64,000 nt of DNA from NCBI GenBank assembly GCA_000934665.2, contig KZ538116.1:1-64000 (forward strand), in the 5' to 3' direction. This stretch comes from Catajapyx aquilonaris (lineage: Eukaryota). Below the pieces are notes generated by a model that searched no databases, was not told where the DNA came from, and worked only from the letters and a program-made list of their open reading frames with translations. A program made the translations under genes and the position numbers. This document shows, piece by piece, positions 13,203 to 64,000 of the stretch; position 1 is the first letter of the stretch; the number at the start of each line of letters is the position of its first letter.

Positions 13203-13284
13203 ATTGAGCCATGTGAGCGTTGATTGCATAATAGACAATTAAGTACCCGAAACTGCCCTACATATGTAACGTACATTATTAGAC

Positions 13285-13601
13285 TTTTAGACATTTTCGA
13301 GAGAGAAAAAGTCGTAGAACGGCTCTGTCTGTCTGTCTGTGAACAGGCATCCGACAGACAGACAGAGCCGTGCTAGAAGACCTTTTTTCGATTTTCGGGT
13401 TCCAGGTTCACTCTATCAGCCCCTTACCCCTGCCTGACCCCCCNNNNNNNNNNCCCTGACCTCCCAGTCCCCCCACCACCCCCTCCCACAGATCACCCTT
13501 TCTCACTTCCCTCCTCCTACCCCATGATACCTGATACCTGTCCACAGACGGACAGAGCCGTGCTGTAAGACTTTCCGATGGATGGAAAAAAATGTCTAAA
13601 A
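13285..13601. mobile_element. Non-autonomous Helentron/DINE-1-like element or MITE (contains an assembly gap)
   Basis: 13-bp inverted ends ttttagacatttt / aaaatgtctaaaa, a (CTGT)n microsatellite near one end folding into a hairpin at 13311-13381, and an N-run at 13444-13453. Confidence 0.55.
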
Positions 13602-13996
13602 CTACTAGGATCGATTTTTAAAGGGGAAAGGGGCGGTCAGATCAGTGTCTTTGACACCATTTAATATATTGGTCAGTTCCCTGGCGAATATCATAATTTG
13701 GTTAATGAAAAGAAGCATGACAGTATCAGAAAATGTCAGTGCCCGAGAGATTGTAAAAGCACTTATCGATGTATTCATTGAGTATTATATCATTTAGGTG
13801 AATATATTCAGAAGCATTCCAAAAGTGGAAGGACACCACATATAATATTTTGATGTAATGACTAGTCGATTGTCCGCATACAAACGTCAAGTGCAGTTCT
13901 AATCTGTAGGCTACATCTAGATACCCAATCTTGTCAGTGTGGAATTATTCTTAAAAAAGAAACAAGCAATTAGAGTTGTTCAGATAGAGAAGGACA

Positions 13997-15532: not shown

Positions 15533-16006
15533 AAAGTGCTCCCAAACAGAAGCCAATAAAAGCATTACATAACATGCAGTTTTTGATTAGTTAATCAGGC
15601 AGCTGTATCCTGCGAGTCAGACGACCCTTTTCTCTGGGGTGAAAGAAGGGTTGCCTATCATGCAGGCTAAATCATATTCTAGACAGCAGCAACAGATGTC
15701 TCTTGGAATCTACCAATCAGGCGACAGAGAGATAATAAGTGGCCTTGACTAATGAAGCAATGGACACTTCTAGGCCTTCAAGTGTTTGTAGGCTGACTGG
15801 TCACCTGGTTGAGGACACTGCACCAAAAGTCATGTCATAGCCTTTATTATCTGTGACCATGTAAGATAAGAAAAGCTGTCACTCTTGTACTGTAAGCAGG
15901 TGTAAGTGCTAATTAATCACAGGTCTGCATACACTTTCATGATGCACAAATGAAAACTACAGCAACTATTGTACAATTTTTAGACAGAATTTTGGTAATC
16001 AACAAG

Positions 16007-17263
<1,257 letters not shown>

Positions 17264-26569: not shown

Positions 26570-27373
26570 CTTCCAAGTCCCTTTTCCCCCCCAAAAACAA
26601 ACCACCCCGCCCCCACCTGCGAAAAGGTGTTCTCCTCCTCAGAGTGTTGGTCTCGGTGGGGGCATCGCCGGGGCGGGGGAGGAACAAGCGGGCCGCATTG
26701 TTGTTCCCCCTCTTGCGACGGAGGAGAGGGTCCTCCCGACAGTCGAGAAGGACTCGGGAGGGGAACGGGAAGGAGAGCGGGATATGTTGTTCCACACTGG
26801 GGAGGTGGAGGGGAAGAGTCGAGCCAAAATCATAAGCCAGTCGAGGAAGCCATCTTGGTATTTCCGGAATTTTTCGACAGGTGGCAGGAGGCACAGAAGG
26901 GAGGAGGGCAAAGGAAAAAAGGGGGAGGGGCCAACATGAAGTGTCCACATCTGCCACTGGGAGCGCCACTGATGAACAAACGCAACTGTTTCATCAGTAG
27001 GTTCACAGCTACCTAATGATCGCTGGCTATTTGTTTACTAGTGAAGCAATACTTCGCAAATCTGATAACGGTTTGTTTGACATGTGGTACTGCATCTGTA
27101 CTGCATGCAACTAACGGAACGACGATGACTTACCCCGGACAAACCGCTCTTGTAAAATGTAGCTGCTTATTTTGGAACCAGGAACAGCTACATTTATAGC
27201 TGCGATTGTAGCGCCCGACTTGTGGCGGCGGGAGATGAACTAGGCGCGTTCGGCCGCCGTGACGTCACATGATTTTCCGAACGCGCCACAATTCCGACCG
27301 GAAAGTAATAAAAAAAAAAGGTGCAATTAAAAAGGCAGGGAGGGGTTCGCGGTGTTCCCCCGAAAGTTGGAAA
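26570..27373. promoter_or_regulatory. Head-to-head EDEM3/DDAH promoter and 5'UTR region with palindromic CRE
   Basis: Divergent start codons about 800 bp apart, gtgacgtcac at 27259-27268, and a CpG-rich patch. Confidence 0.55.
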
Positions 27374-29550
27374 ATGGCGTCGTTCAAGTACACTCATGCG
27401 ATCGTGTGCCGCATACCGGACTCCCTGAAGGCCCAGGGGGTTGGGAACAAGGCGGACGGGGACAAGACCCAGACGGCGGGCTCCATCGACCTGGAAGAGG
27501 CGCGTCGGCAGCACGAGGCCTACGTTCGAACCTTGCGCGAACTGGGAGTTGACGTGATCGAGCTCCCTCCGGATGACAAGTACCCGAACAGCGTCTTCGT
27601 CGAGGACACCGCCGTCGTCTGCAACGGAATCGCACTGCTGACCAGGCCAGGCGGAGGTCCGGACGGAGGAGGGAAGGGAGGGAAGAACGCCAACAACACG
27701 CCTTCCAGGGAGAACGAGGTCTGCACTCAAACACAGGTGTCAGCTAGTCGCATAACGACACATATCAAAGAAGCCTCCAAAAATATGCCACAGTCGTACA
27801 AGTACTTGCGGCGAATAGTTTGAAAATTGACGTCTCCATAAAATATGTTATGTTACAAACAATCATACAAGTACTTGCAACCGAAGCACTAAGCGCTCCT
27901 CAGCCTCAGAAAAGGATGGCATGAGTCTGGACATACAAGCAAGTGTATAACAGACTTGCAAAGTAAGAAAAAATGGCAGGAATAAACCATAAGTCAATGT
28001 TCCGACTTCCGTAGCGTCATTTGGAAAGTATAGGCACCTCTATGCCTTTTCATGCAACTGTAAATTATTACAAATAATTTAAAAACCTGTTAAACGAGTT
28101 CATGAAATGTAAAAACCAGACATTTCACTTGGAAGCTGCATCAGTATTACGAGGTGATTAAAAATTTCGAAAGTGTTGATTAATATTTGCCATCCATAGA
28201 TAAAGAGCCAACGCGAATCATTTGATGTGGGTGTATGTGGGCATTTCAATTTGACTATGTTATTCTCCTAGAGTGACGTCAACATAATTCAACCTCCATG
28301 CATATCGCAGTGTCTTCGTACACATGGACAAGTTCAAGTCATTCTCAGAATGGACATCCTTCATAATTATACGTGAACTTGCAAAATATTCTATTCTTCA
28401 GCAGTATATTTGTTTGGAAAGTTTCCGATGGAGAGATGAGAAGTTTTCAAACAAATTTGTGATGTAAATTGGCATCAGCATTCTTGATACCCTTGTAGAG
28501 CAAATGAGCACTGGCCTACTTTTGAAGGGTGATGTCACTACTTGAGAGGAGGAAGTCGTAAAAAGACTACAATGTGACCTTGACTTCAGGTGCAGACTGT
28601 GAGAGCTGTGCTTAAGAAGGAGTTGGATCTGCCAACGGTTGAGATCAGCGATGAGAAGGCAAGGCTGGATGGAGGTGACGTCCTGTTCACCGGCCGGGAG
28701 TTCTTTGTCGGCATATCAAAGAGAACCAATGAGGCTGGGGCAAGAGCCGTGGCAGCTGCATTTCCAGAGTTCTCATGCACTCCAATTAAGGTGAGGCATG
28801 ACTCAATTAAATTAATTTTTAAAGATGAAACTAAGAGCTAGTAAACTCCCCTGAGAAGAAAAAAACCCAAAACTTTTTTGTGGCATGTAGTAAAAAAGCA
28901 GTATTAGCATGAAGGAATTATTTAGAACCGGTTTGCTATTTGACAAAAGAGACTGAACTGCAAAAATTATGTGGTACTTACCAGTGATGTTTTTTGCATG
29001 CTGTAGATGCTATTAATTATTATCACAGGAGTCTTGAGATTGAAAATGGTTTTTTGCAGGTTCCTGAAGGAACACACCTGAAGGCATTTGTGTCGGTGGC
29101 AGGACCAGACGTACTCTGCGTAAGTGAAGGGCATGAACACCAGGATATTCTGAAGGTAAGGTACCTACACATCCATTACAAAAATCACGTGATGACAGTA
29201 TTTTACAATTTTTTAGCGCATAGAGAGGGAAGCAACATTTCGTTACCGGACTGTGACTGTACCGGAAGATGACGCTTCAAATGTCCTGTATGTCAATGGA
29301 TGCTTGATCCATCGCTCTGCTGATGAGATTCCAAAGTCATTCCCAGTGAGTAGTGCAGATCTACAACTCTGCTACCAAACGCCAAAGACAGGACATCCCG
29401 CATAATAATACTACTTTTCTACAGGTGTTTGGCGAAAAGATAGACTATGCACGGAGATGGTTGAGCATTGCAGAACTGGCAAAGGCATCAGGATCGCTAA
29501 CAGCCTGCAGCATCCTCATCCGTAAGACAAAGCATCTGAAGAACCTGTGA
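27374..29550 (+). CDS. DDAH: Dimethylarginine dimethylaminohydrolase-like (pentein fold; 5 exons)
   Basis: Motifs FKYTHAIVCRIP, QHEAYVRTLRELG, SVFVEDTAVVC, LDGGDVLFTGREFFVGISKRTN, HLKAFVS and GSLTACSILI. Exons 27374-27718, 28590-28790, 29060-29155, 29217-29345, 29425-29550. Confidence 0.93.
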
Positions 29551-35160: not shown

Positions 35161-36675
35161 CTACCTGTCCCGACCTGATACTCTCCAACTCCACGCCTCT
35201 CCTGGTCTCTGGAGAATTGCCGCTCTGCTGCTGACACTTGCCAGGGGGCTTTAAGGTGGTGCTCGCCAGGTAACCAACGTCATCAAGGAGAGCAAGTTGT
35301 GGGAGGACCTGTACTTAGGAGAGGGAGGGAAAGAGAGAGAAAAGTAACAGATCTCCATCCGCAGAAGTGGCACAAAAATTGGAAATGGGCAAATCAACTT
35401 ACTGGCTCCATGTCGACCTCAACGTGATCATCAACCATCTCCAGTTTCTCCATGAGCTCCGACAGCTTTCGGGCCTTCCTCATCTCATTCTGCTCTATGA
35501 TCGTACAAAGGTGCTCAGTCAAGAGCTCCTTCTTCTCCAGCTTGCCAAACAGCTGGAGTTTGGCTTCAACAAACTCCTTCTCTGCACGGTCGTACCGCTT
35601 CCTGTACACATTGGAACAAATTTATATCCTCCTGCGCATGAGAACCACCAAATAAACAAAGCATTACTCACTGAGCCTCCAGAAAGTCCAGACTTGCTGT
35701 CTCAATCTGGTCTCGGAGGATGGCCACATCTGAACTGAGCAAATTGTCTAGTTTCTGCAACTCTTCCTGGATCTGATGCAGCTTCTTGGTCTCCGCCTGT
35801 GTTCTTTTCTTCCTGTAAGGCCAATTATTGATCAACTGTTCAAATCACACCCAATACCGTGCATCTTGTCCTGACCTGTCCGCAATGGCTCTGGCCAGCA
35901 GTTCCTTCTTCTTTCTATTCTGTTCCTCGATGTACTTCTGCCGCTGCTGAAACTCAACCAGCTTCGACACCTCTCTGTCCCTGCAAGCCACAGTCTTGTC
36001 CTCTACGACAGCTACCTGCTGATCCACCCCTTCTCTCTCAAAAGCTGCCTGATTCACAATCAAGCTGCCAGAATTGTTGTACGAAGAGGTGGCCTCACTT
36101 GACGACGACACATCTTCCTTGCTTCCAACAGGGCTTGTCTGGCTACTAGAAGACGGTGAGCTGCTATTCGACATGATGGCCGCATTGCCACCGTTCAGTA
36201 TCTCAAAGCTGTTGCCATCCACAATCTTCAGCTTCACTGTCCTAGATGGACTCGACGGGGCCGTGCAATCGGACTTGTCCTGCGGAATCTCCTATAATTT
36301 TCATTATAATAAGTTCTGAAGTTTGTGCAACTCACAGTACCATAATACGAACCTTCTGCTGCGACAACAAGGCCTCGGCGGGAACGGGCAACGCCATGTC
36401 AGCAGACCAGGACTGAAACAGCCGTTCTCTCCGACCACGTCCGCCTTTGACGGCCGGTACGCTCCTACTTCCTTCTGCAAAACCAGACATGCAGCCATCA
36501 CGGAACAAGTTCTATATTTTAATTGCTGCAACGTTCTATTTGCAAACATGCTGCCCCGCTCTAATAATATATTGCATGCTCCTGTCAGCCAACCCAAAAA
36601 CTCACTGGAATCGTTGAGTCCCCTCCTGATTTTGTCCAGTTCTTCCTCAGTGAAGCCAGCCCATCGGCCGGCCAT
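35161..36675 (-). CDS. GORAB: RAB6-interacting golgin GORAB (6 exons; C-terminus uncertain)
   Basis: N-terminal [13 protein letters not shown] and coiled coil [83 protein letters not shown]. Exons 36675-36606, 36474-36353, 36291-35876, 35812-35672, 35601-35403, 35308-35161. Confidence 0.9.
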
Positions 36676-36983
36676 ACCCTCGCCGTCGCTGTTCGACGAC
36701 GACGGCAGCTGCCGAGTAGCTGACGGCCACCCCTCAGAAACACGTCGATCGAACCTGCGAATCAAATTTTAACACGACTTGCCCACCGCCGCTTATTTAA
36801 AAAACGGCAGAAACATTTCGAAGTCAGTTTGGCACCTTTTAAAGTTAATTTATTTTTTTAATAATTCGGGCGAGTCCATTTTGGGGCTGAGGGTGTTGAC
36901 GTCACTGGCTCGGGCGGCTCATTCGAATCTGAGCGATCGGAGAACAAGGTTTGTTTTCTTCTTCTTCGGTTGTTATTCGAACC
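36676..36983. promoter_or_regulatory. Compact bidirectional GORAB/CCNB1IP1 promoter
   Basis: Only 308 bp between divergent ATGs, with CRE tgacgtca at 36897-36904. Confidence 0.65.
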
Positions 36984-38815
36984 ATGGCGGACATGCAGCT
37001 GGTGTGTAACCAGCAGAATTGCAGGAAGGTTCTGAAGAACGTGGCTTGGATCACCAGCTGCTCACACGCCTTCTGCGAGGACGACATCAACCGGCAGCAG
37101 TCGTCCACCCAGCACACTTGCCCTGCCTGCCAGTCCGTGCTGGCCGACCAGTACGACGTGGTCAAGGTTGACCTCAACCCTTCTGAACAGTTCAAGTCGG
37201 TAAGGATCCTCATTCAGGGGTTTAAATGTTCACTGATTTGGATGACAGGTTTATTGCTATGGAATTCAAGCAAACAGCAGTGTTGACCTTACACGTTGGA
37301 GACGAGGAAGATGAAAAGGTGCAACTGGTCATAATAGAATAGCCGTTCTATGCCAGTTCCAGATTAAGTCCAATTTAGTACAGTTTAATAGAATTTACTA
37401 GTCTCGTAGATCTCTATTCTACTTGTATGGACACTGTAAACCGCAAAAACATTAAAAGAACATCACCGGTGAGTCTCCCACGGAGCATCAATTTCTAATG
37501 CTCTTGTGATGCTTTCTAGCAACAAAAAAAGCATCACAAGAGCATTAGAAATTATTGAGACTCAGTAGTGATGCTCTTTTAATGTTTTGCTGTTTACAGC
37601 GTAGGCTATACAGTAGTAAAATAAACAACAGTCATGTTTCTACACTGTAAACCGCAAAACATTAAAAAGAGCATCACTGGTGGAGCATCAATTTCTAATG
37701 CTCTTTTAATGTTTTTAGCAACAAAAAGCATTGCAAGAGCATCATCAAACCATTAAAAAATTGTTTTTCCATTGGGTGATGCTCTTTTGAGGCTCTTTTA
37801 ATGCTGTGTGGTGATTTTCAGTTTGCAATGTAGGTAACAAAATGTGTCCCGTAGCAACTCTTCTTCATATCCATGCCCATACGATACGCACTTCTTCCTA
37901 ATAATTCTATTAAAATCAATCATCGAAATGTCTCATGAATTTAAAATGAAACTGTCTGCACCTCAATCTCTGGCAGATGGTGCTGGTTGGGCTTCGTCCT
38001 GACACCATCCTCGATGTGGCTTATCGTGCGATGGCATTCTGGTTGTACCAGACCAACCAGGAGAGGGTTTACCAGGAGGTGTTGGCTGCTAATTACAGAG
38101 ACAGGGTGCACCAAATGGAGGAGTACAATAGGAGCATTCTGGCCAGGCTCAAGGCGGAGATACAAAATCTTCGTCGTCAAGTCGAAGGCATGTCATTTGT
38201 TTATTGAGGGAGGAAATGTCACAGAGACGCATGTGTAAATAGTAGCTAATTAGTTTTCTCTCATAGTGTGTACGGAAAATCTGGAGAAGGAGGCAAAAAG
38301 AGCAGAGGAGCTGGCAGAGCAGCTCGCAGACAAGAGCCGGCAGTACCAGAAGTTGCAGGCAGCATATGAATCAATGCGACGATGCACACTTGCGACTGCC
38401 ATGGTACCTGGCCAGATACCTGGGAAGGCCAGCAGTGTCATCAATGTGTCTGCGTTTGGTCCCAAGCCAATGGGCAGGGTCATAGGAGGGTGTCCAATAG
38501 GTGGTGTCAACAGCGGTGGAGATATTCCTGGGAGAAATACAGGTAATCTACCTAAGTTGCCTCACTTGCCTGAGGCAATAAATCTGTGTCATCTGATCTG
38601 TTTGCTCAGTACAGTGCATGATGTTTCCGGTGCACTTAAGCCACTGCAGCAACCAAGCAGGTTCTTTCCTGTACAGTTGTGACCATTTCATGCTGCAACC
38701 GCAGAGTATTGACGCTCTTGTCTTTTCTCCCTTCGCAGGTTTTCGGTTCACGCCAGTGAGGGGAAACGGACCGACTCCACCCAAGCGGATTGCCAGACCG
38801 GGTCATCCAAACTGA
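36984..38815 (+). CDS. CCNB1IP1: Meiotic RING E3 ligase CCNB1IP1/HEI10
   Basis: RING CNQQNCRKVL..AWITSCSHAFC..CPAC, then LNPSEQFKS|MVLVGLRP..RAMAFWLYQ and a coiled coil ending RQYQKLQAAYESMRR. Exons 36984-37199, 37977-38187 (GC donor), 38267-38542, a possible small exon near 38610-38661, and 38739-38815. The 3' structure is less certain. Confidence 0.88.
37432..37830. mobile_element. Two adjacent copies of a CACTG-ended palindromic MITE in CCNB1IP1 intron 1
   Basis: Both begin cactgtaaaccgcaaaa(a)cattaaaa (37432 and 37643) and contain aagagcatca / tgatgctctt inverted subrepeats. Copy 1 ends gtttacagcg at 37601. Confidence 0.75.
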
Positions 38816-43400: not shown

Positions 43401-46400
43401 GGTGGGTGGGCACCAGGAGCTGCCGGAGCTGGCCCTCCCGGAGGAGCTGTGGCCTGTCCAGCTGGCCTTGCCTGCTGTTCGGCCCTGGGATGACCTCGAC
43501 CAACACCAATCCTCACTCCAGTTCCCCCCTCCATTGGTCTACCAGAGGCAGTTGCATTCAGAAATGCATTCAACAAGCTGACAAATGGATTTGCATCCCC
43601 AGCTTGTACACCCCCCTGGCTTGCTTCTCCCCGTGCGCCACGTCTTATGATGTGGTGTGAATTGCACGGCAGGAAGACGTCAAACCCATTTCCTCCTCCT
43701 CCCATGCTTGGTGCTATCTGGACCTAAGGAATATAGTAATAAATCCCAAAAATAGATTGTTGGATGCACAAGACTTGATAAAGTTATATAGTTCCACATT
43801 GACAGCAAACCAGACCTGAGGGCGAGAAGTTGAACGTGTCTGGGTTGATGTGGTTGGGTTGGTTGCAGTGTTTCCACGGGCCTGGGAGTTCTGGACTCCA
43901 GGTGGTGGGCCACCACCAGGGCCTCCTGATGACGATGTGGGTGATGATGTAGTGGATGGTGAAGTGGTGAATCCTGCAATGTTTCCAACCCTGGCACCTA
44001 TCTGTCCAGCTACAGCCTGCACAAGGTTGTGAACAAACTCAGGTGGAGGGGACACCCAGGAGAAGTTGCCAGGAACTCCTGCACACAGAAAACCAATATT
44101 GAAATTTCAGGGTATCTTATAGTTTGAATATTCATCTGAAATATCATTGCAATTGCATTAGAGATTCATGCTTTTGAGTGCAATCTTTGCAAATAAAAAC
44201 ATACATGTCACAGCTCAATAACAGTACTGCGAAGTCTACCTTGGCCATCTCCACTTTGCCCTCCATTCCCATTATCTGACATGACTGCAGCTGAAAGTGA
44301 GTCCAGCGTAATTGACCCTGGTCCAACCTCCATAAAGACAACTGGATTTCCCCCAGAGATGCTGAACCCTGGAGGGAGTCCCTGCATTGGTGGGGCATCA
44401 CTTGTTGGCTGTGCAGACTGTGCAGTTGATGATGACTGCTGCCCTTGTCCTTGCCCCTGTGCCTGACCTTGACCCTGTGCCTGCCCTTGACCTTGGGTTG
44501 GACTTGATGCTTGGCTTCCATTTCCAGCGGTGGCAGTCACATTGATTTGAGCCTACACAATGAAGAAGCATTTGTGAATTCAAGGTCAGGAGCATGCAGC
44601 ATTACCATCCAACTTCCATCAGATGCTCAGTTCCCCTTAGAATTGAAATGCCATCTCTAGAATTTTGCACTGTTATGAGAGGTGTTGCTAATGACAATTG
44701 AAAATGTAAAATATTGTTATTAAATCTCCCCTTCCAGCTAACATCACCTGGTACATATTTTCAAATTAATGACAGAGCTCTTCCCTCCCCCCTCCTCATA
44801 TTAACCATTTGACGGCTAAGTACATATCATAATCATCATGATGTCCTGAGCTTTTTTTAATTAGGCACGCTAGGATGTGGATGTGCATCAAGAATTCGAA
44901 CCTTGTGGTTCCAAATGTGGTTCAATATGCCCCTGCTATGTCTTGGATGGTGACTCAACTACCATTGCACTCCCAGAATCCCCCCTTCTGCTGCAAAGTT
45001 GAGTCGTATATGCCAAGGTCGTTTATGTAAACATGTGCTCTCAGTAGGCTGCAGGGTGTCCCGTAAAGCCTGTACCCATTTATTCGTTACCCGCTATTCA
45101 TTAATATCACTCCTACATCGAATTTTGGACAAGAAAGGATAAAAAACAGTCCAAAAACCTGCCAAAAACTCAGCCGTCAAAGAGTTAACAAAACCTTTCA
45201 AGTCTTTCATAAGCACTATAGAGAGATGTTCTGTCTGTGTATTTGAGTGTGGCATGGATGTGACAGCATACAACCTATGCATCTGTACGAACCTGGTGAT
45301 AAACTGCACACTAAATCTCTGGACGTCAATAAATAAAACATTCGAGATCTGCTCTGAGAAAGCAAGACCTGAATGGGTATCCCTGCCTGCAGGATGGTGG
45401 AATGCTCAATGACAAAAGGATGTGCCCTCAGATCTCTAGGAGGGGGCTGGCTCATATGGCACACAACATCACTCATGGCATGGTAGGCATGGGAGAGGAG
45501 GTGGAGGACTTCAGACACTGCGTTGAAGTTGCACTGTGCCAGGCGCTGATCCTCCTGTAGCAGAAGAGCACATACATTGTTAGCTAGAATTTTATCAAAA
45601 CCCATTATCACCACATCCTCAGAACAAAACTACCCAATAAATCTAAAGGAAATTATGTCCGACCCTAACACCATTGCGTATTATTTTCTATAAGCAAGCA
45701 TCTCCTGGATTTAGAGCATTCAAATAATTCTTGACCTCCCAGAATATAAGAAAATAGTACATTTCTCCCCATAAAAATTAAGAGTGCAAAAACATACATT
45801 GTTGGCAAATGTGGGGTCATCCCTCATGAGATGATGAAAAATTGACAAGTGTGGCTGCAGACGCTCATTGAGGCGGGATACATCATCCAGCACCTGGGAC
45901 ATCAGGATGGTCCGAGGCTGCCTACATTTAAAATAAAATAAAAAGAATTAGGGTGAAAAAACTTAATCTCTTCAATGCCATCTTAGCAGAAAAATAATTC
46001 AAGACAATCTGCAAATTGTGGAATATTGTTGGCAACCTTTTTGTCCCACGCAAACTTCGAAGGGAGTTCAACAAATATTTGTGCCTCTCAATACTGCCAC
46101 ACCTATACAGATCCAGAAATATTTCGCCAGGCAAAGGACAAGTCCATGAAACCTCAAAATATTACTGCCTACTCACTCCACATTTCCATTTCCATTTCCA
46201 TTTGCCGCATTTCCATTGCTCCCATTGGCTGCATCCGCTCCATTGGCACCCCTCTCGTTCCTCCTTTCTCCCTGAGCAGTATTGCTAGTGGTTTGTGCTG
46301 CACCCTGCTGCCCAGCTTGTTCAGAGCGATTCTCAGGAGGTGCAGCACTACCTCCAGCTTCAAATATATATGAAATTCAATATTAATCAACAGTTACAGA

Positions 46401-52373: not shown

Positions 52374-54992
52374 ATGTCTGACGCGGACTGGAACACCGTC
52401 ACCGTGCTGAGGAAGAAGCCTCCGAAGCCATCGGCCATGAAGACTGAGCAGGTTCTGGTTTTTTTTCCCCGCACAACTCGCCATTTTTGTAGCCCCATCC
52501 CGTTGTTTACATGGGAAGGAGGAATTTCAGAGGTTTGATTGTGGCCTTTATTGCAGGCTGTCAACGCTGCCAGGCGACAGGGAGTGGCTGTGGATACCCA
52601 ACAGAAATGTAAGTTGGATCAGCTGATTAGTGGCCATACTGCAAGCGAATTCCAACAAGCTGAATGTGGCAGCGGAAACTACTCAGAAAAAGCTAGACCA
52701 GTTCCGTTGTGCAGAATAATATATTATTGTGCAACTGTGGAGGTCACATGGGTCACACTTAACCCAGTATTGCAACTGATGATGCAAGAGTTGCATGATA
52801 CAAGCCTAGTTGAATGTTATGATAAGCAGATACAGTTGAATCTGGATGTAGCAGACTTCAAGGGACCGCGGGGAAAAAGTCTGTTACAACCGATGTCTGT
52901 TATAGCCAAATATCCACTTTGCAAGGAACACACAAGTTTTCTGCTTTACATGTGCTTATAATGCACACTACTGCATGCTGATTCATGCACCCCCTAAAGA
53001 CCCTGAAGGGTCATCACGGGGAACTAAAAAGAAAAGGGGAAAACTGATTCATGAAACTATCCGCAAAAATGCAAATTAGCTCACCCAGGATTACGCAGGA
53101 CCAAAAGAAATACGTAATTTTCTTCTGCCGCCTCCATGTTGCCAAATATACCAGAAAAAGGATTATTTTGAGTAACTTGGATCAGTGACAGATGCGAAAA
53201 TCACCCCTGCTCCAGTATGCAGTGCTTTCCTCGCGTGGAAAAGGAAGCTGACTAATCAAAAACAGCATATTTTCCTGTCAAGGGGCCAATAAATGGTATG
53301 TTACACATGAGGTGAAGGGAAAATGAGTCTGTTATATCAGGAGTAAGAAGACACAGGGCCTCATGGAAGTTTGCTGGGACCGGCCTTTCAAGTCTGTTAT
53401 AACAAGGCTGTTATATCCGGATTTAACTGTACTATATCGCTCAAAAACATAGACAATTTTGCATTTGATTCAAGTGCAGGCTGCACTTGAGTAAAATGCA
53501 AAATCGTCTATGTTTTTGAGAGATATAGTACATAGTAAGTGTAGAGAGGGTCAATGTTTTGCTAAACAAGTCAGTGAGTGATGTGGGTTGCATCATACCA
53601 GGATGAAACTAATATTCCTCCTTCCTCCATTTTCTGAAAAATAAAGAGGCATTAGTAGAAAAGCACATTTGCAATATTTTCATGTGTGATTCAGGGAAAA
53701 CTGCATTTATATCAATTATATATTTTTAGTGTTGCGTGACATGGTGATAAAGAGAGTTCTGTTTGATTTCTCTGCACAGGGGGAGCGGCCCAGAACAAGC
53801 ACCACCAGACGACCATGAACACTGCACGCCTGGATCAAGAGACGGAGGAGCTTAAGCACCAGCGTGTCACTGTTGACATTGGGAAGGCCATTCAACAGGG
53901 ACGCCAGACCAAAGGATGGACCCAGAAGGAACTTGCAACGGTGAGTTGTTTTCTCTCTCATCAGAGGTTAAATAATTTATGCCACTAATGTTCTTCACAA
54001 AAAATAGAAGTGCTAAGCCTTGGTCGGAAGCATGGCCGCAGGAACATTTAAGGCCCGTTTCCAAAGAAGCTTCAGCTTGAAAAAGTGAGCTATGGAGCTC
54101 ATCCTAGCCGGTGCTTCACAGCTAGCGCCCTCAGACCGGTTTCCAAAGAGGCTTTGGCTTCACAACGGAGCGGAGGAGATTGCTCTTCAGGCTCAAGATC
54201 ACTCTTTGTCTCTCCTCGCTGCCTCCCCCTGCATCGGCAGGGTCCTCTGCCCGAGCAGCTCCTTCCGTGACCTTCGACAGGTCATCTTTTTTTTTCTCCT
54301 CTCTCCTTCCGTGGCCTCCCCACCCTGTGTCATTCCCCCACCCCTAGCCACCTCCCCACCGAGATTGTCCCACATGACCCCAGGAGCCGCGCCGGATTGG
54401 TCAGAAAGACGCTCTAGCTCCAGCTTGAAAATCGCCTCGTGCTCGATGTTCAAAGCAAGCTGAATGGGAGAGCTATAATATCGACCCAGCGCTAGAAACG
54501 CGTTGCAGCTGGAGCTAGAGCCAGAGCGCACTTTTTCAAGCTGAAGCTTCTTTGGAAACGGGCCTTTACGTTTTATGTTTGATTGGTAGAAATAATTGGA
54601 CTTGAAATTAAACCCACACAGTCTGTATGTTACTGTTGCAACTCTCTGTGAAACTCGTGATATGAGCTTATCTCTTAAAAATAATGGCCAAATCTTTTTC
54701 AGTGAAGCAGCTATAAATTGCTTTTCTAATTGTTGACTCATTACCTCCCCTGCAGCGCATCAACGAGAAGCAGCAGGTTGTTACGGACTACGAGGCTGGG
54801 CGTGCCATCCCGAACCAGGTCATTATCGGAAAGATTGAGAGGGCCCTAGGTGAGTAGCAAGAACTAGAAGCGAACAGCATGAGAGGTATTATCACATTAT
54901 AACGCCCCTCTTTGTTTGCAGGTATGAAGTTGCGCGGGAAGGAGAGGGGTGGAACTATACAGGGACAGCCTCCTGGGAAGGGGAAGAAGTAA
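52374..54992 (+). CDS. EDF1: Endothelial differentiation-related factor 1 / MBF1 (5 exons)
   Basis: [15 protein letters not shown]..|[80 protein letters not shown]. Exons 52374-52451, 52557-52608, 53780-53940, 54756-54849, 54922-54992. Confidence 0.96.
52833..53429. mobile_element. Tigger/pogo-like non-autonomous element in EDF1 intron 2
   Basis: Ends ta|cagttgaatctggatgtagcag / ctgttatatccggatttaactg|ta, with subterminal tctgttata repeats. Confidence 0.72.
53432..53528. mobile_element. Short palindromic MITE abutting the previous element
   Basis: Near-perfect hairpin ctatatcgctcaaaaacatagac..gtctatgtttttgagagatatag, TA flanked, related to 23246-23324. Confidence 0.75.
54051..54565. mobile_element. 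Young PIF/Harbinger (Tourist-like) MITE in EDF1 intron 3
   Basis: 37-bp perfect TIR aggcccgtttccaaagaagcttcagcttgaaaaagtg with TTA duplication at 54048-54050 and 54566-54568. Confidence 0.9.
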
Positions 54993-55861
54993 AGTCTCAA
55001 CCCAGGGGGCTGCAGGAGTCAAAAAAAAAATGAGAGGAGCAAGGCATAGACAACACATTTTGTTTTAGGGTTACGTCGTAAGAAAGTTCACTACACATGG
55101 TTACACAGAGAAGAAAAAAGGAAATGACAAAAAAAAAAAATGAAGACAGACTTGTGATGTTGTGATTTCTCAGTCGCCAAGATTTTTGTTTTTGGTTCTT
55201 TTTTTTTTCCTTCTTTCGGCTGTTGGCACTTTGGTGGCATAGATCCTGTCAGGTAGCGTTTCTACTTTTTCTACAGGATGCAATCAGAGTTAGATTATCT
55301 GCTTTTTATGTATGTATGTTGGTTGGTTTAACATTTGTTTCACATCTGCACTGTTGAACATCCCGTTTAACAACACTTTGTTTTGCCATTCAGCTCCGGT
55401 ACCGGGTTTCAGTTTCAGCCATGAGTTATTGGTGCAACTAATGTGCAAATGTACAAATCTAACAAGATTCTCGCCTAAGGGTGACTGTCGCAACGGTTAC
55501 CAAGCAATAAAGACACCCAAGAAATTAGTGAGGAGTCTTTTTCCGTATCCTGTTGCCTTCCAACACTCAGCAGTACTCTCAAACCTACTAGAAGCAATAG
55601 AGTCAATCCTCGTTAGGTATGTGTGTGGTACTACACACGAATTGTGAGGATTGACTCGAGTGCTTCTAGTAATTTTGTGGCTAATTTTATACGATAAGTC
55701 TCCCACATTTTGTTCCCTTTTCATTCAGAAGAAAAATCACACGTGAAAAAGAGTTATTCTTCAGCAGCTTTTATCCTATTTTCCTTGAAAGTCAACAAGC
55801 CGTGAGAAAACATGAGTAATGAAACCACCAGGCACCTTTATTTTCCAAATTTTATGGGGAC

Positions 55862-56654
55862 CTAATCCCGACGTAACATGAACTTCTCCTCCTCGACCCC
55901 TTTTGAGGTGATGATGTTAATCATGATTCCATCACCAGTGTAGATGTCTCGCTCTGCGGCGGATATGAAGACATCCTTCACAATCTGGATGGCCTTCTCC
56001 TTGCTCACTGGCACTGCCTTCACACCTTCCATATTCTTCCCACCAATCTTTAAAAAATTAAATTAATGTAGTGTAGGTTACACTTGCTAAGGGCCGGTTT
56101 CACCGAGCTTGGTATATGATAAAACCAGGTTTCTTTAGGAAAATCCATACAAATAGATAGGGATTTTGAGAAATACCCTGGTTTTATCATATACTGAGCT
56201 CGGTGAAACCGGCCCTAAGACAGCTTCCTGATGGCATATTAGTTTCTAATTAGAAAGCTTGGCACAGAAAGGGAAGTTATAGCAGCTTGAATGTCTTACA
56301 ACAGAATTGGTGGTACCGCAATTTTCATTCTACAAAAAGTATGCCCTACCTGGTTGTCAAGCAGTGGTTGCAGCAGTGCTCCTGAAGATCCACCAGCAGA
56401 GTAGGTGAGCTTCTCAACATGTCCCACTGGGTCGTAGCTGTAAATGCAGCCTTTGCCGTCCTGGTCAAGTCCAGCCAACACATTGGACACGTAGTAAGGG
56501 AAGAACCGCTTGTAATACAGCATCGTGGAGAGCATCTGTGCGACCGCAGGTGTCGTCATCAGTTTGTGGTGCTCGTGGAGATACATCTGCATAGGAACGA
56601 AGATATGCGATATTTTCATAACAGTACAATATCCCCAAAGGTCATGCACTACCC

Positions 56655-56710
<56 letters not shown>

Positions 56711-57091
56711 GCCTGAATGCAGTACCTTCATGCGGGCATCAAGGAACTTTGTGAGTGTGAGTATATCACACCAGCACCCGGAGCACCCAAGCACAGTGTT
56801 TGGTGCCAGCTTGTACAGCTTCGGCTGCTCCCTGGTGTAGATGGAGAAACCAGCACTCAAGCGGGTGTCCGACGCAATGACAGCAAAGTCTTCCCCGGCC
56901 ACAGCCACAATACTCCTGCAAAATAAGATGTCGTACATGTGCATTACAAGCAGGAATAATGCCACGTCCGACAAAATAACAGTCATGCAAGTGCATTTTT
57001 ACCCTCCGTTGTCAGAATAGGGGCTGAAGTACGCCTGTTTAGGTCCTCGCAGGCCGTAGCCGGGATCCATCTGGCCTTCCAGGTTCATCAT
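55862..57091 (-). CDS. PSMB1: Proteasome subunit beta type-1 (non-catalytic; 4 exons)
   Basis: [29 protein letters not shown]..|[54 protein letters not shown]. Exons 57091-57003, 56915-56726, 56586-56350, 56047-55862. Confidence 0.96.
56091..56215. mobile_element. PIF/Harbinger MITE in PSMB1 intron 3
   Basis: About 39-bp TIR gggccggtttcaccgagct..ataaaaccagg with TAA duplication on both sides. Confidence 0.88.
56657..56710. repeat. (TAT)n microsatellite in PSMB1 intron 2
   Basis: About 18 uninterrupted TAT units. Confidence 0.95.
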
Positions 57092-57793
57092 TATTCGTCC
57101 GTGCGATGAAGCGAGTACGAAGAGGGCAGACAGGGAGGTTCTTTTTTTTCACCGGAACTGGCGGAACAGAAAAAGTCAATCGAACAAGTGAAAATTACTC
57201 AGCTAAACACCGCAATGGCCGCCGTTCATCCGCCTCAGAGACACCTACTGGGAGATCCAGAATAATGAAGAGCGTCATGGCTTCATAATAAATTAATATT
57301 AAAATGTTGCTACGGGGTATTAAAATTTTAACATTGTGGTGTACAATATTTGTAGCGTTATTTCCATAAAATGCGAATAGTGGAATTGCGATGAGGTCAC
57401 GCTTGTCCAATATGGCGTCGCACTGATGACAACAAACCTGTTCGATTCTGGTAATTATATTTTATTGCCGGCTTCCACTGTGCCGGGTTGTCAACTAAAG
57501 GGTGGAAAATTAACGGGGACAGTTCCATCTGCCTGGCTGTCATTTTTTCAAAAACTTGTCGCCTTTACTGACATCCTTAAAAAATTAAATTAAGGTACAG
57601 ATTCAGCTCCAAATGCAGTGTTGCTTAGCAAGTTTTCGTCATGGTTTATTGGATTTTGTGACAAGTACACAGACTGCAGATAAAATTTCAGAAGAAGGTT
57701 GACATTTTAAAAAATATTTAAAAATGTATTCTCGCTTCAATTCTAGTGTGCTGATTCTTGTCTCCAAACTCAACTTATTTTTCGTCCTGGGGG

Positions 57794-60025
57794 ATGAATC
57801 TCACCCCGGATGATGGTGTCCCTGACAGTGGAGAAAAGAGCGCTGATGCTAGTCATAATGGGGCCAGAGCCAGGTTGGACCCAGCGAAAAATAGGGAGGA
57901 ACCAGAAGGTCAAGACTGTACCGCATGCGATGAGGGGAGCTGGAAAGTGTCACTTGGGAGCTGTGACGTGACCGGAGATGCCCTGGACAGCATTGTCATT
58001 CCTAGTTTACAAGACAGCATTGCCATTCCGAGCTTTCATGATTCCCCTTCGTCGTCACAGACTGATTTCAGTGAACCGCCGAGCCTCCCAAAACCGAACC
58101 TGGACATGACACCAACGCCATCATCCTCTAGGTCGCTGACTCCTACCCCTGTCTATAAGGCTGTGAGCACTTCTGCAATAACTGTTACTTCCTTGCCTGT
58201 TTCCAACCCAGATCTGCCTCGTAGCGTCAGCTGCTTCAACTTGGGAAACAGATTTGTGCATGTTGAGAGTCGGGTCAAACGTTATATTCGTGACATGAAG
58301 CAGCGGCAGGCAGAACATCGGGCAAGGTCACCTGGTCGCTCAGGTGATCTCTCTTCAGACTGGAGTCATCAACCAGAGGTCACCAGGCGTCACCATGCCC
58401 CATGGTTCTTTCCATATGAAAGCTCAGAAGAGGATTCAACTGTTGAGAAGGATTCAGAGGCACTTAAATGTGAGATAAAAAATGAAAAAAGGTTAAACCG
58501 GCAGAAAGATCAAGTTTTGTCTGAACTTGAAAAAAGTCACCAAGAATTACTTCTAAAGTATGCAGCAGCAGAAAATACCATTGATAAGCTCCGGTTACTG
58601 ACAATGTTTCCAGCTTCAAAGCCTGTGTCTGAGAGTAGATCCGAGAGTACAAAGTCCCCTGCAAAAGAAAGCAGCACAAGTGATACACTGACAGATTCAG
58701 AACGTGAAAGTGACAGTAGTGCCCAACACCCAGCTGTGCCAGTCAAGAGCAAAAGTACCCGGGCCATGTCACAAACTTGTGAAAATAGTGACACCCCAAC
58801 AAAATCAGAGTCCAAAAGCGACAGCAGCAGGCGAAGACGCAGTCAAGCAAGAAGCATAGATGGCCAAACAATGTTACAAAGCAGTGTGGGTCTCACTTGC
58901 AATATTGATAGGGATGGAGCCATTGATGTCCTCAAGGAGTTTGAAAGTAGGCCGAACCCAACTCTGGAGAAATCACGGAGAAGCACAAGTGCTCAAACAA
59001 GTTTCCAAAGAAATAGTGTGGGTGTCGCATGTGACACACTGGATTTGAAACCTAATCAGGTCAGTAGTGCGGGTGTTCAAACTGGCTTTCAGAGTAATGA
59101 ACCAGGTGATTACAGCGCACAGTCTTTGAATGCCATGACGCATCCAGTCACAGAGCTTACCACCAACCAGGCAATGAAAGTTGTGGAAGAAAACCTTGCA
59201 AGATCCCTTCACAAATGGCAGGAGGAAGTGGAGACTCGGCTGAAGAAAGTTATTAGCAGATCAAGGCGCAGGAAAGATTCACCCAGCCCGTCACATGTCA
59301 CTATCTCATATAGTGATGATACACCATGCAACAGTACAAGCTCATCAACTTGGAGCAAGTCACAACCAGGCAAAATTCATAATCCGTCCAAAACTAGTAA
59401 CGAGCCAATTTACCCAGGCATATCTAGCAGTAGTACAAGTAAACATCACTGTGCCAAAGACTGTTGCTCCAGACATTCATCGCAACATGATGACCTGAAT
59501 CCAAAGAGTGCTTCTTCATCCGTGCAGACAACAAACGATGCCGAGGGAAAATCTAACCCAGAACCAGTGAGTATTATCATACAGTGGTGTCATTTCCCAA
59601 ACTTCTATCAATAACAACTTCTCTCGTTGACAAAGAGGTGCAAGGATGTCCCTTTCATATCCGAAATTATTTGCACTTTTGTAGATGTTGATACCTAAAT
59701 TTTTAAAAATACATTGGATGACCCTTTCATTCAAGGGGGAATTTCAAAATTGTGCAGAGCAGCTACAAAACATTTTGGTATATTTCCTATAATGCTTGGA
59801 GTGGCAAAAATTAATTGGTTGAGGAAGTTATCTTAATACACTGCACTAATTCTTTGGCTGAAAGTCACTTGATTTCCAACTGCTTGGAATGCCTTATTGA
59901 CAAACAATCTTTTTCAGGACTTGGACAGACTAATTGCCTCGATGCAACTGGCCGAGAGTGTTGCTGCAGCCATGAAGTCCCGCTCAGAGACCATGCTACA
60001 CCAACTGCGGCGCATGACTCAGTGA
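57794..60025 (+). CDS. AKNA: AKNA-domain protein (AKNA/AKNAD1 family; 2 coding exons)
   Basis: Large Ser-rich exon 57794-59566 contains ELLLKYAAAENTIDKLRL, matching the AKNA coiled-coil motif as recalled. In-frame last exon 59918-60025 (DLDRLIASMQLAESVAAAMKSRSETMLHQL) resembles the AKNA C-terminal helix. Start codon tentative. Confidence 0.72.
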
Positions 60026-60123
60026 TTTTCCCTTGTAATGTAGTTCCATATATCCTTATTTTATGTCCTTGTAAACACATGCACGCTTACACACAGTGTG
60101 ACACACAACTTGGTTGGAATTTG

Positions 60124-63100
60124 CTATGTTGCTGACGCTAGATGATCTATCCTGCAGTTTGGTTGCTGACAGAATGGACATAGACCTTCAGGAGTGAAGA
60201 GAGTTTTGTAGGAGCTTCTCAAGTAGTTGATGTACGTCTGGAGGTTCTGGTTGCTGGACCGCACCTGCTCTAAGCTGGTTGACATGTCAGCTATCCTTCC
60301 TTGAAGCTTCTGCTCCATCTGAAGGCAAGGGAAGACGTAATGTTTTTTTTTTTTTAATCCTCCCTGTTGTAAAAGTTAAATTGAAATGAAAAGGCCTCAG
60401 GTTATTGTGAAGCATCCATCAAAGTATTGCGTGTGAGGCCTTGTGGACAGTTGTGACAGAGATCGTGGCCTTGCCTTGTGCAATGTTTCCATTAACCCTC
60501 ACTAACTGTTAACTCTGGCAAGTGACTAGGAACAACTTTTAACCAGAGCAAACAAGGGTCCATGGAAATATAGCACTAGACATTGTAGGAAAAGGTAATT
60601 CACATCATGCAAGGTTAGGTTTGTGCTGATTTTGTGACTTGCACTTGGTTAAAATATTTCATTGTTTTACTTGGGAGTATTTCCTTGCATTTAGCACAAA
60701 ACCGGGAGCCGTTCAAGGAGGGCATCTCCACATTCTAACCCCTTGTATTCACAAAATTTCATTTATGGATTTAGGACTGAAATTGGACTATCCGGAATGG
60801 CATCAAGGCTAAAAATATGAAGAAATCTGAACTCAAATTCATAAGCACTATTTTCCACCACAGTAATTCCGTCCACATCTACACAGTATTACGCTGGTTG
60901 TGACCCAGGTTGCCCGATGATACAAAAAGTATAGCTTTTTTTCTCAAAACTTACGTAAAGCTGACAGTTTTTGTTTGTGTTGACCCATTGAGAATAATCA
61001 AGGCAAGGATAGGTATTCACGTACTTCATCTTTGGCACTTGCTATTCTTGAAGTCTCAATGTTTGCCTGCTGTATCCTGTCCTCTAGGGATCGAATGCGG
61101 GCTTGCAGATTCTTCCCCTGGGCCTCGTACCTCTCCCTGATCCTCTCCAGCTCCACCCTTCCAGACTCTGCCACAGACTCCAGCTTATGTGACAGGGAGG
61201 CATTCTCCCTTATTTTGTCTTCAACACGGCGTGTCAGCTGCTGGACCAGCTGGCTTTTATTGAGCACCTCATCCCTGGGTTAAACATTTAAAGGAAGGTT
61301 GTCAGCAGGAAGGAACGTAAAAATTGTGCCAAACAAATATCACAAGTCCTAGTTGCAAGGGTGGCAACAGTGATCTTTTTGTATTAGAAGGACTGTAACT
61401 GTTTGTGAGAGAAGTAGTATAGACCTAGCAAAAGAAACAGTCACAATAATGGTAACAATGATGATGTCGATGATGAGTAAAAATACTAATAACAATAGTC
61501 TTAAGAGTAATAATACAGTTAAACCTGGATGCAGGGACAAGTTGTCCTGCATGGAACTTTTGTTTGGCCCCAGCAAAGCATATTCACTATATCTCTGTTA
61601 ATATCATTGGCATACAAGTGAGGCCCCCCATGTCCAAAAAAAACAAAAAACATTTCAAGATTGACAAGGCAAAGATATGACCTTGCACTTGTTGACGTGC
61701 TAATGAAGACAGAAAATCCTGGCTTTCTGGCTCATTGCACATCTTTCGGATGAAAGGAATTCACCAGATGATAGTGCAGAAAAATTCTACTTGCAAGTTA
61801 GTGGTATAATTAACTCAAAACCACCAAAATTGGAATTAGTGTGTTTCACTTGTGTGCCAACTACATAACTGTGGGTAATTTTGTGCAAAATGTGATGACT
61901 CCACTGTAAACAGGTTTCACTGAAAATGAAGTAGATTAGTTTACTTAGAGCATAGAATGTGTATAATATTCTTGAAATATATTGTAACTGTGTGTATTCT
62001 GGAAAGTATGAAAGTACAGTAGTCATATCTAGTCGTGACAATAATTCTATGGTCTTATGTACCCTACATTTACAAGGAGATATTCCTTGGAGATATTCAT
62101 TCCATTAATTTGTGACATGAGCTGTAGTGTGTCACTACATATTTTTGTTGGTACTTGCAGATATTACTGTAGATATAATTTGAGTGCCAATGACTGTTGG
62201 AACTAATACAAGTTCAATTTGAGAACTTCAGTTTTAAAAGCATTGAACATGCATTTGATCACTACCAGTCAGCTTGCTATGAGTTCTAATTGTATCACAT
62301 GTTCAAGCAACAGTTCGATGTTGTTCCTAAAATATAACTTAAGTCAGTGAAGGATGGTGCTTCCTTCAATAACTCTTAGTTTTAGGCATTTTTGGTTCAT
62401 GTCTGAGGAGCAGCTTAAGTTCTTCATTTTCGGAAGGATAAAACATTTCCTACAGCTTTATTCACACGGTTCTAGTCAATGTATACAGGGTCCTAAACCA
62501 TGGAATTATTCCAAGTCAACAAATTTTCGAACAATATTTTTTACTCCTGTGCAGGTCCATGTTGGACTACGTTAATCACTTTTGTATATGAGTGTAATAC
62601 CATGTTGCAAAGGAAAAGTATTAAATGGACAATCAACTTTCACTATTCAAAGACTATACCAAGAACGTTTTTCTGAGGCTGCAACATGCAAGTACAAGTG
62701 AGGTGTCGGCGGCAAAAACCCTATTAGTCACATCGAGGTAGTTTTGAGAAAAACACGAAAAACTTCTTGGATACATAAGGGGTTTTTATGGAAACTCTCT
62801 ATTTTCAGCATTTATCTCGAGGCGTTGTATGGGGTTTTTCCGGTTGACAATCGTATGTTCCTGTAGCTAGATGGCTGCAATGTCCAGCTGTTATGTTATC
62901 CCGAAAATGAATAATTTGGACATATGGGGTTTTTGACACCGACGCCTCATTAGTAATATTATGTAAGTAATATCATGGAACCAAAGATGGCAATAAAAGG
63001 TATATAATCCTGACCTAAGCGTCTTGTTCATTAATTCCAACTCTTCGCACCGGGTCTTGTATGCCCCAAGTTTGCTGTCCGCGTTCAGCTTGGCATCCTC

Positions 63101-64000
63101 TGCGCTCCTGGTGCTTACCTGCTGCCTGTCCAGTTGTTGCAGCAGCTGCTCCACCTTTTCTCGGGGAGGGAGAAATAATCATTCCAGTTTCACTACCTAT
63201 AATGGACCCAGGCAAAATAATATTGTGTCGCCCTTAGGTTGGGCGCAACCTAGGCATACCTTCCTGGTGAGCACTGCCACATTCTGCTGCATCTGGTCTC
63301 GATGCCTCTCCAGCGCCACCCTGTCTATGAGGACCTCCTGAAGCCTTGACTCGCTGGCCTGGAGCATCTCTGGGAGGGGCTCAAGCTCCCTCATCCGCTC
63401 TTGCAGCTGCTGCTTGAACAGCTCCACTTCCGTCCCCACCTGGCTCTGCGCCCTCACAAACTCCGCCTGAAGGTCCTCCACGGTGTGGGTCTTCTCCTCC
63501 AGCTGGCGAAGCGAGTTGTGGTAGTGCTGCTCCAGCTCTTCCGTGTGGAGCTTTGTGTTCTGCAACTCCCCCTGGAGGCCCTCCGAAGAGCGGAGGGCGG
63601 TCTGGAGGCCCTTTTTTTTAACCCCCCACATCTACAATTAATTCATCAGTAACATGCATGGCAAACACAAGTTTCTTCAGTGTCTTCATGATTCTACTGA
63701 ATAATGCAATGATAGAAGTGCATATGTACAGTGAATCTGACCGGACTGACCTGGTTTTCAACTCTGAGGCGTTCCAGCTGTTCCTGTGCTTCGTCGAGCC
63801 TTGTTTGTAGAGCGGCCACCTCCTTCTCCTTTTCCGAGTTGTTCGTCACCTCTTGGGTGTCCAGCTTGTCCTGAAGTGTCTTGGTCCTCACCTCTGCATT
63901 TTCCACCTTGGTTTCCAAGTTGCTGACATGTGCCTGGAGGAGCTGCCTGGAGCGCTGGAGGTCCTGCACCTCCCGTTCCCTGCACTGGAGCTCGTGGGCT
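60124..64000 (-). CDS. ODF2: ODF2/cenexin (ODF2/ODF2L)-like coiled-coil protein, 3' part (runs off the window)
   Basis: Coiled-coil exons >64000-63751, 63631-63260, 63154-63015, 61274-61025, 60318-60124. Motifs LQERMRELEPLPEMLQASESRLQE and MEQKLQGRIADMSTSLEQVRSSNQNLQTYINYLRSSYKTLF match the cenexin C-terminus as recalled. Confidence 0.78.
62700..62948. mobile_element. Small GAG..CTC-ended non-autonomous DNA element (Sola-like?)
   Basis: Imperfect inverted ends gaggtgtcggcggcaaaaaccc / gggtttttgacaccgacgcctc. No clear target-site duplication. Confidence 0.5.

Follow-up and report, generated by a model that had tools for sequence, protein, structure and literature searches.

A gene of the AKNA family and a candidate ODF2/cenexin gene converge in a contig of Catajapyx aquilonaris

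Organization of the convergent gene pair

The first 64,000 nucleotides of contig KZ538116.1 of Catajapyx aquilonaris (assembly GCA_000934665.2), referred to as the window, contain close to their right-hand end two predicted genes that run towards each other: a gene on the + strand with the characteristics of the AKNA family, and a gene on the - strand that probably encodes an orthologue of ODF2/cenexin (referred to as the AKNA-like and ODF2-like genes, respectively; Table 1). Direct reading revealed a tail-to-tail arrangement with TGA at 60023-60025 and TAG at 60124-60126 (CTA on the + strand), and confirmed the stop positions (60025 and 60124) and the 98-bp gap given in a preliminary description of the locus. 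The + frame was open from 57755 to 59614 (619 codons), with the first ATG at 57794. A donor site (GTGAGT) was found at 59567, directly after codon 591, and the acceptor (TTTTCAG) ended at 59917; the two exons together encoded a predicted product of 626 amino acids.

The ODF2-like gene had five exons within the window, and all four introns showed GT..AG ends. The joined frame of 1206 nt contained a single stop codon, at its end, and corresponded to the C-terminal 401 residues of the product: 59% of these residues were Glu, Lys, Arg, Gln, Leu, or Ala, five were proline, and the character was that of a coiled coil throughout. In exon B, an alternative in-frame acceptor was present 30 nt further in. 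The product ended with ...NYLRSSYKTLF followed by a Cys/His-rich tail (...CPFCQQPNCRIDH..., 60127-60195), and the stop codon was located 23 residues after this motif.

Contigs of a public sequencing run (X1), the kind of which is not on record, were placed on positions 55000-64000; this run contained 45% of the words sampled from the stretch, and parts without X1 cover carry no information. The contigs contained the joints 59566/59918, 60318/61025, and 63154/63260 (the last listed as 63152/63258, with the cut shifted by +2), exactly at the predicted exon borders. They skipped 59567-59917 (GT..AG), 60319-61024 (CT..AC), and 63155-63259, together with two introns of the proteasome gene located upstream, and spliced RNA is the simplest source of these joint-bearing contigs. 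The joints 63751/63631 and 63015/61274 of the ODF2-like gene are predictions only.

The depth of X1 contigs was also considered around the spacer. The bin 59515-59815 had a depth of 0.73, as expected from 52 nt of a contig with a depth of 4.2, and the bin 60117-60417 had a depth of 3.80, as expected from 202 nt of a contig with a depth of 5.67 and the joint 60318/61025. In the bin between them (59816-60116), the depth was 3.58, of which the contig of the AKNA-like gene, ending at 60024, accounted for only ~1.5. By depth arithmetic, this surplus fits a contig of the ODF2-like gene that extends across the whole spacer to ~60006. Neither AATAAA nor ATTAAA was found on either strand within ~1.1 kb downstream of either stop codon, and the 3' ends were not placeable from the sequence. 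Because of the lack of these hexamers, the 3' ends of the two transcripts are predicted to overlap, which we regard as likely.

Two stretches of the predicted long intron of the ODF2-like gene, 61332-61860 and 62546-62982, were under exact-match X1 contigs at an exon-like depth; a retained intron, alternative exons, and transcribed repeats are candidate sources. Nested inverted repeats (I1 and I2; 62417-62964) were present in the same intron, with 62417-62445 pairing with 62889-62917 and 62684-62729 with 62919-62964; these repeats overlap the second contig-covered stretch and look like a small foldback element. A scan of the whole window with Rfam gave no match. In the AKNA-like gene, a tandem duplication of 27 nt (nine codons) was found at 57986-58039, in the non-conserved N-terminal part of the large exon (DSIVIPSLQ/DSIAIPSFH). 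A near-palindromic, X-box-like RFX site (GTTGCTTAGCAAG) was present at 57620-57632, ~160 bp upstream of the ATG; RFX X-box matches of this quality occurred in the window at the level of chance (10 found versus 10.6 expected).

Table 1. Predicted features of the AKNA-like and ODF2-like genes and of other genes in the window
Feature	Position	Strand	Remarks
AKNA-like coding exon 1	57794-59566	+	591 codons from first ATG; predicted start
Conserved AKNA-family block	58463-58597	+	Residues 224-268, ...LEKSHQELLLKYAAAENTIDKLRL
AKNA-like intron	59567-59917	+	351 nt, GT..AG; skipped by X1 contigs
AKNA-like last coding exon	59918-60025	+	35 codons plus TGA, in phase with exon 1; putative C-terminal helix
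Spacer between stop codons	60026-60123		98 bp
ODF2-like last coding exon (E)	60124-60318	-	64 codons plus TAG; joint 60318/61025 in X1 contigs
ODF2-like exon D	61025-61274	-	3' border backed by joint 60318/61025; 5' border predicted
ODF2-like intron, predicted	61275-63014	-	1740 nt, GT..AG ends; joint 63015/61274 in no listed contig
ODF2-like exon C	63015-63154	-	5' border backed by joint listed as 63152/63258, cut +2
ODF2-like exon B	63260-63631	-	124 codons; 3' border backed by contigs; acceptor at 63631 predicted
ODF2-like exon A	63751-64000	-	Cut by window end; remainder of gene beyond window
Proteasome beta-subunit gene	55889-57180	-	Pfam Proteasome on two exons; spliced contig of high word depth
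Proteasome beta subunit, Pfam match	56299-56998	-	Pfam
BAG6	45219-45629	-	Pfam
RING gene	36933-37283	+	Pfam
GORAB-like gene	35394-36291	-	One exon (35668-35844) matches PF04949, weakly
DDAH	27263-27820	+	Pfam
GH47 plus PA-domain, EDEM-type (EDEM3-type) gene	19284-24227	-	Pfam
Tandem PhyH genes, two or three	10630-17000	+	Pfam
LIM-homeobox gene	3944-5450	+	Pfam

Assignment of the two genes to AKNA and, probably, to ODF2

The assignment of the AKNA-like gene is based on a short conserved block. A search of a whole library of 1.84 billion representatives yielded 13 weak hits (best E value, 3.6e-8), 12 of which appeared to be relatives. These were metagenome and Logan proteins that had no name or were labelled "hypothetical", and several had a length of 574-614 amino acids. 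A bacterial S-layer protein among the hits was rejected as spurious, being matched through low-complexity sequence. A word-based homologue search with exon 1 at near lengths returned no homologue, and real relatives were missed by that search. When aligned, the hits of the whole-library search had one sharp block in common, ...LL.KYAEAENTIDQLR., and a scan of metagenome contigs for this block confirmed 31 loci from 266 pattern matches, in several groups including rotifer-like and coral-like ones. The residues L, K, A, A, N, I, D, and R of the block were invariant in both alignments (A1 and A2).

A profile of the block (alignment A2, 27 sequences) was searched against 5.8 billion sequences. It matched a coral "serine/arginine repetitive matrix protein 2-like" (P0020; 3.5e-28), a rotifer "unnamed protein product" (P0021; 3.2e-24), and, in vertebrates ranging from marsupials to fishes, proteins that bear the name "microtubule organization protein AKNA" or "AT-hook-containing transcription factor", with E values of ~1e-14 to 1e-12. 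Among the matches listed, 110 of 120 proteins carried PF12443, the AKNA domain of Pfam (manual count). The block, ~60 residues around KYAxAENTIDxLR, was common to the window gene and vertebrate AKNA: hhalign equated it with residues 420-477 of a primate AKNA (probability 97.8), and BLASTP gave 40% identity over 60 residues (E value, 9e-8). PF12443 is located at residues 596-690 of this primate protein, and the shared block is therefore a different piece of the protein, upstream of the Pfam domain.

A reverse test, independent of the window profile, used a hidden Markov model (HMM), for which 48 named proteins among these 120 served as input, against the 2675 open reading frames (ORFs) of at least 15 amino acids in the window. 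The ORF of exon 1 ranked first (E value, 1.2e-9; model positions 420-479) and that of exon 2 ranked second (E value, 1.7; positions 1393-1424 of 1441), collinear with exon 1. With an HMM of the C-terminal 55 residues of AKNA, exon 2 took the first of the 2675 ranks (E value, 0.55, and 0.21 with four invertebrate C-termini added). The C-terminal HMM also matched same-strand downstream exons of rotifer-like and other AKNA-like loci (2.7e-5 for L015 and L016, 2.1e-4 for L009, 0.012 for L027, and 0.021 for L010) and, in L030, the terminal part of the long ORF (6.8e-8). In a protein atlas, the two clusters nearest to the product were both AKNA, at a low score (0.78), and PF12443 was annotated on only 48 and 39% of their members.

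From these comparisons, membership of the window gene in the AKNA family, through a block outside the Pfam domain, is well founded. The family has at least two collinear conserved pieces, the first of which is recognizable clearly and the second weakly in the window gene. The term "AKNA-domain" used for this gene in the preliminary description was correct with regard to the family, since the HMM of named AKNA proteins placed its two exons at the top of the window, and incorrect with regard to the Pfam domain, which went undetected (see below).

Short Cys/His clusters were noted in several of these proteins. The AKNA-like protein has CAKDCCSRHSSQH at residue 553 (59450-59490, +), and its coral, rotifer, and primate AKNA relatives have a cluster of the CP.C...H.H type some way before the C-terminal helix. 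These clusters, and that at the end of the ODF2-like product, may be small metal-binding knuckles.

The ODF2-like gene was assigned in a different manner. Human ODF2 would be collinear with the last four exons and would have the same short motif before the C-terminus (...NYLRSSY... in the window); this putative similarity is the same kind of evidence as that behind the preliminary description and not independent of it. On this basis, the gene is a good candidate for an ODF2/cenexin orthologue, and we consider this identity quite probable.

Identity of the genes and origin of their adjacency

Both families have been linked to one structure of the mammalian cell. According to the passages available from two preprints, AKNA and ODF2 are located in mammals at subdistal appendages, as had been said in the preliminary description, and at basal feet, and the gamma-TuRC (gamma-tubulin ring complex) of RPE1 cells is kept at subdistal appendages by AKNA, not by ninein. 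Direct binding between AKNA and ODF2, suggested by the word "partners" in that description, was not mentioned in the passages of the literature consulted. With regard to arthropods, a published study (Mol Biol Cell, PMC9582643) and its preprint refer to cenexin as "absent in arthropods and nematodes". The arthropods of PMC9582643, as given in its supplement, were Nasonia, Apis, Drosophila, Tribolium, Acyrthosiphon, Bombyx, and Daphnia pulex, with an identity of >40% as a criterion; the absence of cenexin/ODF2 from these species agrees with the earlier remark that Drosophila has no recognised ODF2. Word searches of one library, which do not prove absence, found no paper on AKNA outside vertebrates, and the words orthologue, invertebrate, and evolution were absent from a scoping review of AKNA.

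The explanation that we favor, with moderate confidence for the whole, is that the convergent pair consists of an AKNA family member and a probable ODF2 orthologue, adjacent through old linkage. They would be two ordinary protein-coding genes. The + gene would encode a short, serine-rich, and mostly non-conserved member that keeps the helical block with KYAxAENTIDxLR and the C-terminal helix, in the same order as in vertebrate AKNA, and the portion of the - gene in the window would encode the C-terminal part, a coiled coil throughout, of a longer protein that is probably orthologous to ODF2/cenexin. If mammals are taken as a guide, the ODF2-like protein may form appendages or basal feet on the older centriole or basal body, and the AKNA-like protein may be located on these structures and anchor gamma-tubulin complexes there. 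The tail-to-tail placement would be an inherited chromosomal linkage that became closer where genes are densely packed, rather than a regulatory device, and the 3' ends would abut or overlap simply through the 98-bp gap.

Several results weigh against this explanation. PF12443 was undetected in the whole of exon 1 at E<=1 and in its conserved part at E<=10, and none of the 13 whole-library hits had it at E<=0.1; without this domain, the window protein may lack part of the function of AKNA. The match of exon 2 to the C-terminal helix was not significant alone (E values of 0.2 to 1.7), with the position and order being right. As for the ODF2-like gene, Pfam scans of its exons returned weak generic coiled-coil matches only and no ODF2 model, and a word-based homologue search with its longest exon (B) at longer lengths found none among 520 candidates. 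The protein atlas placed exon B in generic coiled-coil clusters only (GCC2-, RABE1-, CEP128-, and HMMR-type), and the Protein Data Bank contained no entry related to exons D, B, and E. Furthermore, X1 contigs show neither the strand nor the ends of a transcript, and the run, the kind of which is not on record, may be the sample behind the assembly itself.

These results bear on the possibility that the ODF2-like gene encodes some other long coiled-coil protein, in which case the "appendage pair" would be an accident of naming and the adjacency would have no special meaning. No tool result links the gene to ODF2 (a full-text literature search for a putative 8-residue ODF2 motif also found no paper), and coiled coils are alike in composition. 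On the other hand, the putative similarity to human ODF2 would go beyond composition, following the same order through the last four exons up to the short motif before the C-terminus. The survey above found cenexin/ODF2 in none of its seven arthropods; however, these were six insects and Daphnia and >40% identity was demanded, such that a diverged orthologue from another arthropod lineage would escape it. We consider this alternative unlikely.

The favored explanation refers the adjacency to chromosomal history. The window is gene-dense and of the animal type, and its other genes were established to the level of the Pfam family. A proteasome beta-subunit gene is head-to-head with the AKNA-like gene, with ~600 bp between them; a long AT-type trinucleotide run (56586-56726) in one of its introns would encode poly-Ile, poly-Tyr, or poly-Asn depending on the frame, and was passed over as a repeat when X1 contigs were placed. 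The GORAB gene of the preliminary description is at the distance given there (~21 kb; ~21.5 kb here), and its match to the GORAB-type family of Pfam is below threshold: PF04949 matched one exon with an E value of 4e-4 and 20.7 bits versus a cut-off of 27.5, and the large exon 35848-36291 and the exon 35394-35621 had no Pfam match. The human counterparts of most of these neighbours are presumably located on chromosomes 1, 6, and 9, and the window may represent, in compact form, part of the linkage group that underlies the major histocompatibility complex (MHC) paralogon of vertebrates.

Human AKNA maps to 9q32 and AKNAD1 to 1p13.3. ODF2 is probably located at 9q34.11, together with which it is mentioned in the literature, and its vertebrate paralogue ODF2L presumably at 1p22. 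This double pairing (AKNA/ODF2 and AKNAD1/ODF2L) suggests that the two families were on one chromosome before the vertebrate duplications, and the pair in the window may be a remnant of an old linkage group that stayed compact. A more specific proposal, that AKNA and ODF2 formed an ancient linked pair predating these duplications, of which the 9q and 1p pairs are remnants and which was kept here tail-to-tail with touching 3' ends, appears improbable to us.

The preliminary description instead regarded the two genes as a linked appendage module, possibly co-regulated or coupled by antisense overlap. On this view, the tail-to-tail arrangement would be kept since expression is coupled, by shared chromatin or 3' overlap, and scaffold and client are made together. 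With 98 bp between the stop codons and canonical poly(A) hexamers lacking over ~1.1 kb on both strands, one transcript or both probably enter the opposite gene, and X1 contigs lie on the spacer region as judged from depth arithmetic. Both mammalian counterparts work at one organelle substructure according to the passages available, and two of approximately a dozen subdistal-appendage genes would be adjacent by chance in ~1 in 100 genomes, as a rough estimate. However, the pair was singled out post hoc in a very large scan, and convergent overlap generally interferes with expression more often than it coordinates it. Human AKNA and ODF2 presumably share a chromosome arm, at a large distance from each other; in humans, being linked without being adjacent is evidently sufficient, and close adjacency is therefore not needed for function. 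Beyond proximity, nothing was found in support of the module, and inherited linkage explains the adjacency at least as well. We regard coupled expression as a decidedly improbable reason for the adjacency.

A recurrence of the adjacency in other animals, as raised in the preliminary description, was not observed: no ODF2-like flank was present at any of the 31 AKNA-like metagenome loci. In tblastn searches of these loci with the exons of the ODF2-like gene, nothing was better than an E value of 0.3, and a motif scan for the ODF2-type C-terminus found none in the 7819 ORFs of the loci. When 483 ORFs of the window (at least 40 amino acids and ending beyond base 30000, exon D included) were compared with the 31 loci, only AKNA-like matches were obtained, plus one short hit of 22 amino acids (E value, 7e-4) from an unrelated ORF of the window at 54271-54414. 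This was a weak test of adjacency: in few loci does the sequence continue for more than 2 kb after the C-terminal exon, the relationships are remote, and coiled coils such as that of ODF2 diverge quickly.

The two genes might also have been joined by mis-assembly, as only one assembly is available with no genome of a relative to compare. No runs of N were found near the junction, the only ones in the window starting at 1433 and 13444, and the junction sequence was unique and free of repeats. X1 contigs were placed on either side of the junction and, as judged from their depth, also on the spacer, with the reservation that the run may be from the sample of the assembly and thus not independent. 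An artefact of this kind is very improbable indeed.

With old linkage as the favored explanation, the adjacency is a lead and not a result. The novelty is limited to two points: a motif by which the AKNA family can be extended to invertebrates, and a candidate ODF2 of an arthropod. The AKNA family reaches coral, rotifer, and arthropod-like sequences via the block of ~60 residues outside the Pfam domain, which the public names of the invertebrate proteins do not indicate, and this block is an obvious candidate for the segment responsible for a conserved job of AKNA, small enough for a direct test. If the - gene is ODF2, the printed absence of cenexin/ODF2 from arthropods, which refers to six insects and Daphnia, would need narrowing. 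If the proposal of an ancient pair were true, some arthropods beyond the sampled insects and Daphnia would keep a subdistal-appendage or basal-foot toolkit that was lost in flies, and the AKNA family would be pan-metazoan and defined by a short motif outside the Pfam model.

Comparison with known systems

Natural antisense pairs, i.e. convergent genes with overlapping 3' ends in compact animal genomes, resemble the window pair in the convergent orientation, the 98-bp gap, and the lack of a canonical poly(A) hexamer nearby, and differ from it in that the overlap of the window pair is predicted only. The ancestral linkage group of the vertebrate 1/6/9/19 (MHC) paralogon corresponds to the window in the genes found next to the pair (LIM-homeobox, PhyH, EDEM-type, DDAH, BAG6, and proteasome-beta), which were matched by Pfam family and not by the orthology of each.

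The ODF2-like product shares with ODF2/cenexin a coiled coil along the chain, the comparison being confined to the C-terminal part, since the N-terminal part of the protein is outside the window. In contrast to cenexin, for which a long C-terminal extension with a PLK1 site is described in the passages available, no such extension was seen in this product, which ends 23 residues past the motif.

The AKNA-like protein and vertebrate AKNA have in common the block ending ...KYAEAENTIDQLRL (AKNA residues ~420-477) and long serine-rich stretches without conservation (17% of the residues of the window protein are serine); a putative helix at the extreme C-terminus of the window protein matches that of AKNA weakly. 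On the other hand, the window protein is half as long (626 versus ~1200-1600 amino acids), and neither the AKNA domain of Pfam nor an AT-hook core (GRP or RGR) was detected in its 626 residues. The invertebrate AKNA-like proteins (coral P0020, rotifer P0021, and the metagenome ORFs) also contain the block, together with the C-terminal helix where their sequence reaches it; those of coral and rotifer are approximately twice as long as the window protein. The metagenome ORFs of 574-614 amino acids resemble the window gene in length and in having a single large exon, and its closest relatives are ORFs of 574-581 amino acids in six metagenome loci, with 32-34% identity over 144 query residues.

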